Source: a virus (Duplodnaviria > Heunggongvirae > Uroviricota > Caudoviricetes). Taken from it: 41,008 nucleotides of DNA. Made by a program: the position numbers and the translations under genes. The notes beneath the pieces were generated by a model. It was not told where the DNA came from and searched no databases. It saw only the letters and a list, made by a program, of their open reading frames with translations. How positions within the stretch are numbered: the stretch's first letter is position 1; each line of letters starts with the position of its first letter. Location of the stretch: the IMG/VR virus record IMGVR_UViG_2541047933_000001, one strand, 5' to 3'. Below, one piece after another: positions 257-41,008 of this stretch.

Positions 257-5089
<4,833 letters not shown>

Positions 5090-31658: not shown

Positions 31659-31952
31659 TTAAAATTCCATTTGTATTTGATCAGAACGCTCGGTTGCCGC
31701 CGGGCGTTTTTTATTGGTGAGAATCGAAGCAACTTGTCGTGCCAATCGAGCCATGTCGTCGTCGACAACACCCCATTCAAGAACAGCAAGCAGCATTGAG
31801 AACTTTGGAATCCAGTCCCTCTTCCACCTGCTGATCTGCGACTTATCAACGCCCACAGCTTCCGCTGTCTTCTCAGTTCCAAGCATTGCGATTTTGTTAA
31901 GCAACGCACTCTCGATTCTTAGAGCCTCGTTGCGTTTGTTTGCACGAACCAT
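31659..31952 (-). CDS. cII: CII transcriptional activator (near-identical to lambda CII)
   Basis: Internal-Met product MVRANKRNEALRIESALLNKIAMLGTEKTAEAVGVDKSQISRWKRDWIPKFSMLLAVLEWGVVDDDMARLARQVASILTNKKRPAATERSDQIQMEF matches recalled lambda CII. Confidence 0.9.
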   Translation of the reverse strand: MVRANKRNEALRIESALLNKIAMLGTEKTAEAVGVDKSQISRWKRDWIPKFSMLLAVLEWGVVDDDMARLARQVASILTNKKRPAATERSDQIQMEF

Positions 31953-39342: not shown

Positions 39343-39619
39343 CCTGCAACTTGCCGTTAAAGGTGAATACTTCGATGCCATGATTCGCGGAGAGAAAACG
39401 GAAGAGTATCGCCTGTGTAATGACTACTGGAATAAGCGAATTATGTTCCGCGAGTATGACCGCCTGATTATCACAAAGGGATATCCGAAGCGCGACGATT
39501 CCAGCCGCAGAATTGACGTCCCGTATGACGGATATGAAATCAAGACAATCACACATCCGCACTTCGGCGATAAACCGGTAAAGGTGTTCGCTATAAAGGT
39601 GAATATCGACAATGAATGA
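39335..39619 (+). CDS. Hypothetical protein
   Basis: 94-aa ORF overlapping the upstream gene end; no confident domain assignment. Confidence 0.45.
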   Translation: MANLQLAVKGEYFDAMIRGEKTEEYRLCNDYWNKRIMFREYDRLIITKGYPKRDDSSRRIDVPYDGYEIKTITHPHFGDKPVKVFAIKVNIDNE

Positions 39620-39691
39620 TAATCCTCGCACTCGCGGGGATTTCTTTTATCTGAACTCGCTACGGCGGGTTTTGTTTTATGGAGATGATAA

Positions 39692-39859
39692 ATGCACTTC
39701 CGAGTCACAGGTGAATGGAATGGAGAGCCATTCAACAGAGTTATCGAAGCAGAGAACATCAACGACTGCTATGACCACTGGATGCTGTGGGCGCAGATAG
39801 CACATGCAGACGTAACTAATATTCGAATTGAAGAACTGAAAGAACACCAAGCCGCCTGA
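39692..39859 (+). CDS. Small hypothetical protein
   Basis: 55-aa hand-translated ORF (MHFRVTGEWNGEPFNRVIEAENINDCYDHWMLWAQIAHADVTNIRIEELKEHQAA) with GGAGATGATAA-ATG RBS; the overlapping 62-aa ORF-track entry 39612-39800 is less plausible. Confidence 0.35.
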   Translation: MHFRVTGEWNGEPFNRVIEAENINDCYDHWMLWAQIAHADVTNIRIEELKEHQAA

Positions 39860-39872
39860 TGGCGGTTTTTTA
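39851..39872 (+). terminator. Rho-independent terminator ending the early-left operon
   Basis: CCGCC-TGAT-GGCGG hairpin (stop codon in the loop) followed by a T6 run. Confidence 0.7.
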
Positions 39873-39881
39873 TTGCCTGAT

Positions 39882-39897
39882 TTGCAGGTTCGATTCC
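39882..39897 (+). other. 16-nt tRNA T-arm-like fragment (TTGCAGGTTCGATTCC)
   Basis: Matches the T-stem/T-loop consensus GGTTCGATTCC with flanking stem bases; no complete tRNA is present. Confidence 0.4.
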
Positions 39898-39916
39898 CTA
39901 TTCGGAGATAGCACTC

Positions 39917-40117
39917 ATGCAACACGAACTACAACCTGATTCACTGGTTGATTTGAAATTCATCATGGCCGATACTGGCTTCGGTAAAACCTTCATCTAT
40001 GACCGGATTAAGTCCGGCGACCTGCCAAAAGCCAAAGTTATCCACGGGCGAGCAAGATGGTTATATCGTGACCATTGTGAATTCAAAAATAAGCTCTTAA
40101 GCCGCGCCAATGGGTAA
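39917..40117 (+). CDS. torI: Excisionase / recombination directionality factor, TorI (AlpA-family) type
   Basis: 66-aa product MQHELQPDSLVDLKFIMADTGFGKTFIYDRIKSGDLPKAKVIHGRARWLYRDHCEFKNKLLSRANG matches recalled TorI of prophage KplE1; sits at the prophage end next to the att core and host gene. Confidence 0.8.
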   Translation: MQHELQPDSLVDLKFIMADTGFGKTFIYDRIKSGDLPKAKVIHGRARWLYRDHCEFKNKLLSRANG

Positions 40118-40190
40118 AATAGCGGGTAAAATATTTCTCACATCTAAAAAACACCATTCCAATCAATCCCCTGCCGCCTCAAGTAGATGT

Positions 40191-40204
40191 CTGCAGGGAC
40201 ACCA
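40191..40204 (+). other. Putative prophage attachment-site core resembling a tRNA-Arg 3' end (CTGCAGGGACACCA)
   Basis: Sequence resembles the acceptor/T-stem 3' end of argW as recalled; lies between torI and the host LysR-family gene where phage-type content ends. Confidence 0.5.
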
Positions 40205-40303
40205 TTCTTGTGTTTATCCCTAAAACCACGTAAAAACCGTAAATTATTAAATTCGCACTAGCAATGCCGAATAAGGCACACCAGGAACTCGTGGTCTTAT
40301 TCA

Positions 40304-41008
40304 TTATGAAGTGGTTTTTACCTGTTCTCTTAACCAAGTAATAAATGCCTCAATTTTTGGCCACTGCCTGCCCGGTAATGTAGTGATGTAATAATGCTGA
40401 TGGCATTTCACCGTCATATCGCCAAACGGCGCGACGAGCTCACCACTGGCAAGCCTTTTTTGTACCAGACGTTTCCTTCCCATCGCCACCCCAATATGAT
40501 TCATCGCGGCGATAACGGCTAAATCAGAGCGATCAAAGCCAATTCCCGAAGATGTCGGCAAATTAACCGCATAATGTTGCGCCCAACTATGCCATTCATC
40601 CGTACCGGAGTCGTTGCTCCATGCCTGTCTGTCATGGAGCAACGTACAGTGACGCAGGTTAATTACCGTGTTGGTTAAATCATGTCTATGAGCGTACTCC
40701 GGGCTGCAAACTGGCAGGATTTCTTCATCCATCAGAAAGTGATGAGCCAATTGCGCTGACGGCGCATCATCAAAGTAGATCGCCAAATCGATTCCGGCAC
40801 GTTGCAAATTGACATTGTCATTACCAGTGAGCACGGTGAGCGAAATAGACGGATATCGGCGTGTAAAGTCACCTAATGCGGGCACCAACCAGCATTGGGC
40901 GATAGAGGGCCGGGAATACAACGTTAACGTTCCCGATAACTCCTGATTTTTGATATCCAGAATTTCCTGATTCAGGGTATCCAGCGACGATTTTAGCGCC
41001 CAATAAAC
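40304..41008 (-). CDS. dsdC: LysR-family transcriptional regulator, substrate-binding domain (probably dsdC); 5' end lies beyond the window
   Basis: C-terminal LysR effector-domain-like sequence; in E. coli K-12, dsdC flanks the argW-integrated KplE1 prophage next to torI; gene symbol inferred from synteny only. Confidence 0.5.
   Translation of the reverse strand, partial: VYWALKSSLDTLNQEILDIKNQELSGTLTLYSRPSIAQCWLVPALGDFTRRYPSISLTVLTGNDNVNLQRAGIDLAIYFDDAPSAQLAHHFLMDEEILPVCSPEYAHRHDLTNTVINLRHCTLLHDRQAWSNDSGTDEWHSWAQHYAVNLPTSSGIGFDRSDLAVIAAMNHIGVAMGRKRLVQKRLASGELVAPFGDMTVKCHQHYYITTLPGRQWPKIEAFITWLREQVKTTS

Follow-up and report, generated by a model that had tools for sequence, protein, structure and literature searches.

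The right end of a CUS-3-type prophage in argW: an attR core and a phage-borne tRNA T-arm box in front of torI

There are two short tRNA-like segments near the right end of a 41,008-nucleotide stretch of Caudoviricetes DNA (IMG/VR record IMGVR_UViG_2541047933_000001; the whole of this stretch is called the window below), and between them lies torI, a gene for a 66-amino-acid excisionase. This arrangement raises the question of whether both segments are scars of integration, and a preliminary description of the window had indeed suggested that the split pieces might be nested or decayed attachment (att) sites. Comparison with related phages, prophages and host genomes points to another answer. 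Positions 39849-40205 very probably constitute the attR region of a CUS-3-type, P22-like prophage that resides in argW of an ST95-type Escherichia coli, and we hold this account as a whole with good confidence. The downstream piece is identified by its sequence as the true attR core, whereas the upstream piece, here called the T-arm box, is recognized as phage DNA and not as a chromosomal relic. Only the downstream site is slightly decayed, in that one G is missing.

The source lineage can be traced closely. Positions 39600-40330 are 100% identical to the corresponding DNA of UTI89, NU14, IHE3034, PMV-1, APEC O18 and others, in which torI and dsdC are annotated. The CUS-3 genome record (CP000711, from RS218) is collinear with the whole window at 99.8-99.99% identity, from the neuO repeats to the T-arm box, with the exception of approximately 1.9 kb of extra DNA located roughly at 3154-5078 of the window. 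Likewise, positions 39812-40206, including the box, torI and the core, are 97.5-98.5% identical to HK620 and Sf6. Alignment of the region with argW, KplE1, HK620, Sf6 and CUS-3 places the upstream 16-mer at argW nucleotides 46-61 and equates the downstream piece with the att core. The 66-amino-acid open reading frame (ORF), which had been described as TorI-like, encodes a protein that matches TorI (PDB 1Z4H) at all 66 residues and is therefore a member of the TorI family of winged-helix recombination directionality factors (RDFs). Taken together, the region is assignable to the KplE1/HK620/Sf6 recombination module (IntS, attP and TorI).

This system and its layout are already known, as is the role of the downstream piece as attR. 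In KplE1, the proteins IntS, TorI and IHF recombine attL and attR within a shared 16-nucleotide core, CTGCAGGGGACACCAT, the IntS arm motif is TAAA, and the TorI sites GTTCG, GATCG and GTCCG are located in the attL arm; CUS-3, HK620, Sf6 and the UTI89 prophage have been named as carriers of the module (PMC2951348). An attR of 135 bp, beginning within the 3' end of torI, supports excision in vitro (PMC3509656). The same att site is found for Kapi1, a phage for which attB deletion work is available (PMC8787464).

The order of genes at both prophage ends is that of this module. As had been noted, torI is the last phage gene before a host gene of the LysR family, which is dsdC. There is a TorI homologue (hkaC or gene 18), followed by the attP core and int, in HK620 and Sf6, so that attP lies between the RDF and int genes. 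KplE1 of K-12 presents torI, the core (annotated as the pseudogene pawZ) and dsdC, and the UTI89 prophage begins on the left with argW, a GGGG core, the P' arm and intS, and ends on the right with torI and then dsdC. These orders and that of CUS-3 agree with the proposed layout in which int and the RDF gene occupy opposite prophage ends. After integration, int lies beside argW on the left and torI beside attR on the right. A different architecture is seen in Proteus hauseri (locus 2492-2680), where a gene for a TorI-like RDF (74% identity over 58 amino acids) is followed directly by a convergent P4-type integrase gene, with no argW-type core between the two and no T-arm box.

A tblastn search finds no IntS-like sequence in the window, which bears out the earlier remark that an integrase is missing. 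The window does encode an 'integrase core' (rve) domain, and this belongs to an IS21-family transposase (Table 1) rather than to a phage integrase. The integrase gene had been expected beyond the left edge of the window, and this is where it is located: in CUS-3 it lies to the left of the neuO repeats, and in UTI89 it lies just to the left, next to argW. CUS-3 Int is identical to HK620 Int at 380 of 385 positions (99%), and thus the collinear CUS-3 provides the P4-type IntS partner of TorI.

The downstream piece had been described as a core resembling a tRNA 3' end, and this description holds. The sequence CTGCAGGGACACCA at 40191-40204 corresponds to nucleotides 61-75 of argW (reference sequence taken from UTI89), except that its G run is GGG and not GGGG. 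Extended by one flanking T, the resulting core CTGCAGGGACACCAT matches the 16-nucleotide KplE1/HK620 core at 15 of 16 positions, with one G deleted, and is equivalent to pawZ of K-12. The other copy of the core, with GGGG, is the attL copy inside argW in UTI89 and CUS-3, the genomes that match the window at its right end, such that integration at the argW 3' end is flanked by the core at both prophage ends. The downstream piece reaches from the crossover to the tRNA 3' end and is the live attR. There is no tRNA or transfer-messenger RNA gene in the whole window according to ARAGORN, and an Rfam covariance scan of 39500-40400 gave nothing near a gathering score, with sub-threshold noise only.

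The DNA around the core has the expected recombination sites. There are TAAA arm-type motifs in the P arm, where two GGGTAAAA repeats are candidate sites that IntS probably binds, and the P' arm of UTI89 carries GTTCG, GTCCG and GATCG repeats, whose presence in the sequence marks them as putative TorI sites. The preliminary description had also listed a 9-nucleotide direct repeat, ACACCATTC. Both copies exist and the P-arm copy is where it was said to be, but the second starts at 40199 and not at 40200. The repeat is unremarkable alone, because two or more copies occur in 10 of 100 shuffles of the window. In addition, the P-arm copy is not conserved outside the E. coli-type module, and the core copy ends in bases that the host flank contributes in this lineage, other hosts having a different flank. 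A 37-codon ORF at 40110-40223 overlaps the torI stop codon and extends through the attR core. It is the counterpart of hkaB of HK620 and gene 17 of Sf6 and matches no Pfam family. Since these counterparts span the attP core, the C-terminus of the product would change on integration.

The upstream T-arm-like segment, TTGCAGGTTCGATTCC, is an exact 16/16 match to argW nucleotides 46-61 and covers the end of the variable loop, the 5' strand of the T-stem, the T-loop and the first two nucleotides of the 3' strand of the T-stem. It is unique in the window, where only 0.06 matches are expected even with two mismatches allowed. The box occurs at the same place in the genome records of HK620 and Sf6 (deposited as circular), in BASEL phages and other newly isolated phages, and in KplE1 of K-12, which argues that it is phage DNA. 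An integration relic would be chromosomal, absent from free phages, and would extend from the crossover to the tRNA 3' end. The box is present in HK620, Sf6 and other phage records, and it lies 5' of the core in tRNA coordinates. No fusion of argW to the torI leader was found among 5426 complete E. coli genomes, and a contiguous attP lacking torI is not seen among the matches listed from 50,697 phage records, all of which have the two pieces approximately 390 bp apart. Thus the proposal of nested or decayed att sites does not survive, given that the upstream piece is phage-borne, is located 5' of the crossover and keeps a fixed distance from the RDF start codon in many genera.

The preliminary description further supposed that the two pieces together would reconstitute the 3' half of a tRNA. 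Their coordinates do abut, sharing the C at position 61, and jointly span argW nucleotides 46-75, but they are not simply the parts of one split tRNA. A model in which torI was inserted into a single tRNA 3' half was considered and rejected in this simple form, and an unsplit version is not seen in any phage among the matches listed. The core-proximal site TTCGATGTA|TGCAGGG is itself T-loop-like in most lineages, and the two pieces therefore overlap in tRNA coordinates and are not complementary halves.

A survey of 269 loci with 88 distinct RDF leaders indicates how widely the box is distributed. Its central sequence, GTTCGATTCC, is present in 49 of the 88 leaders (41 exact, eight with one mismatch), and in 39 of these 49 it is located 19 nucleotides from the ATG. 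The RDFs of box carriers range from 35 to 100% identity to TorI. The box or a one-mismatch variant occurs in prophages of Serratia, Pantoea, Edwardsiella, Citrobacter and Enterobacter, and it was not found in those of Dryocola, Tatumella and Rouxiella. The box of phiEt88 is AGGTTCGATTCC, while that of Emek and g341c is GTTCGATTCC. The Erwinia phage Midgardsormr38 has the box CAGGTTCGATTCC twice in tandem with a 16-nucleotide period (locus positions 2156-2168 and 2172-2184) in front of its RDF gene. The box ends 16-19 nucleotides before the RDF start codon in Midgardsormr38 (proximal copy), phiEt88, Emek and g341c. In a contig related to Midgardsormr38, the second copy of the box has decayed to GGTTCGGTTCC.

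The information content of the box is about that of the Shine-Dalgarno (SD) sequence GGAGAT, and the spacer and flanks are variable. Additional bases identical to the tRNA differ by lineage: E. coli keeps TTGCAGG at the left side, and Serratia and Pantoea keep CCTG at the right side. This may reflect a single, longer ancestral tRNA-derived segment whose two edges have been eroding while its centre was kept by selection. The box carries two to four substitutions (GTTAGATCC, GTTAGAGCC, GGTTAGACTCC) within an otherwise unchanged leader in some Salmonella- and Edwardsiella-type prophages, and the same C-to-A change in the box (GTTCG to GTTAG) is found in two separate lineages.

An identical 32-nucleotide leader that includes both the box and the SD sequence is joined to RDFs that are only 33% identical to each other. 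Similarly, the Int of phiEt88 is 74% identical to that of HK620, whereas its RDF is only 35% identical. These pairings place a mosaic joint at the RDF start codon, and they indicate that the leader, as a mosaic block, follows the integrase and its target rather than the RDF. Every module with a recognizable core targets an argW-type tRNA; the loci compared for a change of the box with the target tRNA included outliers and a Pseudomonas F116-like module, neither of them informative. We conclude that the box appears to be under purifying selection and to form part of a horizontally exchanged leader block located in front of the RDF genes of argW-targeting modules. None of the papers in the searched collection contains the 16-mer, and the conserved box in RDF leaders is a modest new detail.

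The attR core carries GGG where HK620, Sf6, K-12 and the attL core of UTI89 all have GGGG. Of the 5426 complete E. coli genomes, 40 carry the GGG allele, and the strain names of these 40 are all of the ST95 type (UTI89, NU14, IHE3034, UM146, PMV-1, APEC O18 and others). At least 673 of the 5426 have GGGG in the same context. In the viral-contig sample, the window is the sole GGG representative among approximately 58 TorI-identical loci with downstream sequence. The 7-bp overlap is predicted to be TGCAGGG, flanked by the imperfect inverted half-sites GATGTC and GACACC, and given this position of the half-sites the missing G falls at the predicted boundary between overlap and half-site. Tyrosine recombinases such as lambda Int need matching overlap sequences in their partner sites. 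The mismatch between the attL and attR cores would accordingly be predicted to impair excision of this prophage.

There is also an IS21-family element near the 5' end of the endosialidase tailspike gene (Table 1), which has probably inactivated that gene. Decay of CUS-3-like prophages has been reported (PMC9659370). The lost G, the element in the tailspike gene and this reported decay suggest that this copy of the prophage is probably defective as well as impaired in excision. At the other end of the window, positions 1-98 consist of 14 tandem copies of GAGTCTT. They represent poly-psi, the phase-variable heptanucleotide tract of the neuO O-acetyltransferase gene, which the window edge truncates. 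There are 19 annotated heptamer copies in the neuO tract of CUS-3 from RS218.

What might the box do? The sequence GTTCGATTCC in the box is the same sequence that abuts the predicted overlap, and these integrases must recognize it. The box also tracks Int and its target. These two observations lead us to place first, tentatively, the possibility that the box duplicates the left (B) half-site of attB, to which the core-binding domain of the integrase would bind, and might act on torI expression or on intasome geometry. A broader formulation is held with slightly more reserve. The box may function as a cis element derived from the tRNA: a separate attB left half-site, copied and kept by argW-targeting phages 19 nucleotides before the excisionase gene. 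It might be read by the integrase or by another factor that reads T-loops, thereby gating RDF expression or shaping the intasome, and it would travel in a mobile leader block that has been re-joined to unrelated RDF alleles.

Several points speak against the account given here. The CUS-3 record (CP000711.1) annotates its positions 1-16 and 40192-40207, the latter being the box, as the attL and attR cores; this assignment is almost certainly wrong, although junction data may lie behind it. RS218 was not among the genomes checked for the GGG allele, and the position of the crossover within the core, and hence the effect of the missing G, follows from inverted-repeat logic. The box is missing from 39 of the 88 distinct leaders, including those of Chronis and EhrS_49, and decayed copies exist in some prophages, so it is dispensable. 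Point variants fall within the box among E. coli-type prophages. Furthermore, a pure Int site would be expected to have the C-type half-site, which is the better palindrome, whereas the box keeps the B-type sequence, and the binding partner is a hypothetical one, named here as a best guess.

The CUS-3 annotation could be taken at face value, in which case CUS-3 ends at the upstream 16-mer as the true att core, and torI and the downstream core are the right end of an older KplE1-like prophage. The 16-mer is after all a perfect direct repeat of argW nucleotides 46-61 at the other prophage end, as annotated in CP000711, and argW is a known hotspot with decaying elements (PMC9659370). We regard this as very improbable because the box, torI, the core and int are contiguous in HK620, Sf6 and other sequenced phages. 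The CUS-3 record ends at the box and thus excludes torI and the real core, and its left end reads TTGCAGGTTCGATTCC, TGCAGGGGACACCAT, an HK620-type P' arm and int. Its P' arm closely matches that of HK620, its Int is of the HK620 type as described above, and the attL DNA that follows CTGCAGGGGACACCAT is the HK620 P' arm. An older prophage on the right would leave CUS-3 without any RDF, and an attR remnant would not lie 5' of the crossover in tRNA coordinates. The argW::torI remnant and the torI-less attP that this explanation predicts are the two arrangements sought above, among the E. coli genomes and the phage records, without a find, and the phiv205-1 annotation places attR downstream of torI. 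A different concern, allowed for in the preliminary description, is that the upstream match is chance or generic T-loop similarity without meaning, given that GGTTCGATTCC alone is a generic T-arm sequence of many tRNAs. This has a negligible probability. The exact match includes the argW-specific TTGCA and stops exactly where the core starts in the tRNA, the 16-mer is unique in the window, and its conservation at a fixed distance in many lineages already refutes the chance reading.

Other functions can be imagined for the box. It might act in the mRNA, where its 3' half AUUCC would pair with the SD sequence GGAG(AU), sometimes extended by GGUU pairing with AACC near the AUG, such that TorI translation is kept low on read-through transcripts. 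Minimum-energy folds pair the SD sequence with the box in most box-bearing leaders, the proposed helix is paired in 84% of cells compared with 35-54% for slid partners, and the Citrobacter-type leader folds well (-11.1 kcal/mol, z = -2.2). However, compensatory changes are practically absent, the covariation score does not exceed that of shuffles, and the RNAalifold consensus reaches only -1.08 kcal/mol. Of six representative leaders, five are no more stable than their shuffles (z = 0.09 for the window leader), the hairpin model leaves the invariant CG at the centre of the box without partners, and the Edwardsiella-type leader forms a hairpin of its own that leaves the SD sequence free. We rank this function second and consider it unlikely. 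Rather improbable is an operator for the RDF itself, through which TorI would regulate its own gene. The box contains GGTTCG, the centre of TorI site I4, 24-29 nucleotides before the torI ATG, TorI is known to repress PintS through GTTCG-, GATCG- and GTCCG-type sites (PMC2951348), and Emek-type arms also carry GTTCK repeats. Yet phiEt88 combines an exact box with P' arm repeats of the GTNACC type and an RDF of only 35% identity, the box is found with at least four different types of RDF recognition helix, and ATTCC is invariant in the box, whereas known TorI sites vary outside the pentamer. The authors of the HK620 and Sf6 records annotated a putative pI promoter that includes the box, and the TTGC repeats at 39873-39885 could be seen as a site for cII with an incidental likeness to tRNA. 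We judge this more improbable still. The repeats are separated by N5 and not by the N6 of lambda-type TTGC-N6-TTGC sites, other lineages conserve the box but not the repeats, and a pI promoter at this position would express the excisionase during lysogenization. A scan upstream of torI also found no sigma-70-like -10 and -35 elements. The prophage has its own lambda-type N6 cII site, TTGCGTTTGTTTGC, at 31930-31943; this site lies within the cII gene, in the position of pRE, and its strand points towards cI. That the box has no present function is unlikely, a little more so than action in the mRNA. Among the readings, the half-site therefore remains first, and every specific function other than that and pairing in the mRNA has a low probability.

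The features of the region are collected in Table 1. The box follows immediately upon an intrinsic terminator, a stretch that is labelled 'tL4 terminator' in an HK022 record, and similarity to lambda/HK022-type phages ends at approximately 39875-39880. It seems that torI lacks a promoter of its own and that transcription would reach it by read-through of this terminator. Menouni and colleagues reportedly found in 2013 that torI is silenced by Rho-dependent termination, a silencing that would agree with inefficient initiation of TorI translation, as the mRNA model of the box supposes.

Table 1. Coordinates and basis of the features discussed (window positions)
Feature	Position	Strand	Basis or remark
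Intrinsic terminator of the early-left operon, stem-loop 39849-39868 plus T tract, just before the T-arm box	39849..39876	+	Terminator scan
T-arm box TTGCAGGTTCGATTCC, corresponding to argW nucleotides 46-61; its core GTTCGATTCC is 19 nucleotides before the torI ATG	39882..39897	+	Phage-borne
torI Shine-Dalgarno sequence GGAGAT	39904..39909	+	Read from sequence; column conserved across leaders
torI, RDF (excisionase) and TorR inhibitor, 66 amino acids	39917..40117	+	100% identical to PDB 1Z4H; RefSeq annotation torI; function PMC3509656, PMC2951348
Two GGGTAAAA repeats in the P arm (40112-40119 and 40124-40131), probable IntS arm-type sites	40112..40131	+	Sequence; same stretch annotated as attP repeat in HK620
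ACACCATTC, P-arm copy of the 9-nucleotide repeat; resembles the right half of the core	40151..40159	+	Polymorphic among close relatives
attR core (P-O-B') CTGCAGGGACACCAT, argW nucleotides 61-75 plus one flanking T, minus one G (run 40196-40198)	40191..40205	+	Sequence comparison
dsdC, 3' part (host LysR-type regulator), cut by the window end	40304..41008	-	ORF list; RefSeq annotation in UTI89 and K-12
IS21-family element near the 5' end of the endosialidase tailspike gene: IstA (rve and helix-turn-helix) 3217-4239, IstB 4236-5018	~3131-5084		Not in CUS-3 record

The main value of these findings is corrective: of the two tRNA pieces, the true attR is the downstream one, and the upstream one belongs to the phage. 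The right boundary of the CUS-3 record is most likely approximately 310 bp too far to the left, and hence the record omits the phage's own excisionase gene. This matters for prophage border calls that use the record and for judging the excision of prophages that carry neuO. Judging from the missing G in attR and from the IS element, UTI89-type ST95 strains seem to carry a neuO prophage that is locked in place, which bears on the stability of K1 capsule O-acetylation. In addition, how a phage with uncoupled int and xis controls RDF expression is not settled in the KplE1 papers, and the conserved box offers a small, testable lead on it.

Among known systems, KplE1 (CPS-53) of K-12, arranged as intS-attL ... 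torI-attR with pawZ, shares with the window the same TorI, argW target, core, box-bearing leader, P arm and dsdC neighbour. However, KplE1 is a 10-kb remnant and the window represents a CUS-3-like prophage of approximately 40 kb; the K-12 core has GGGG where the window has GGG, and the host flanks differ by a few bases. The attP regions of HK620 and Sf6 have the box, the TorI homologue and the core in common with the window, but there the P' arm and int come after the core, whereas in the window host DNA does, as befits attR; their authors read the box region as the pI promoter. The CUS-3 record contains the same collinear DNA and lacks torI, the real core and the IS21-family insertion in the tailspike gene.

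A more distant likeness is to the attP and int-xis system of lambda, in which a heterobivalent tyrosine integrase likewise acts on arm and core sites together with IHF, and an RDF sets the direction towards excision (PMC2951348). The lambda order is xis, int and attP, whereas the order in this module is xis, attP and int, so that the two genes are separated on integration. Also unlike lambda, the Int of this module is of the P4 type and is autoregulated, and its target is a tRNA 3' end. Finally, arrays of tRNA 3' fragments left by successive integrations resemble the present case in having a tRNA fragment apart from the intact gene. In such arrays the fragments are relics in the chromosome that extend from the crossover as far as the CCA end, whereas the box is a conserved, phage-borne segment from the 5' side of the crossover.

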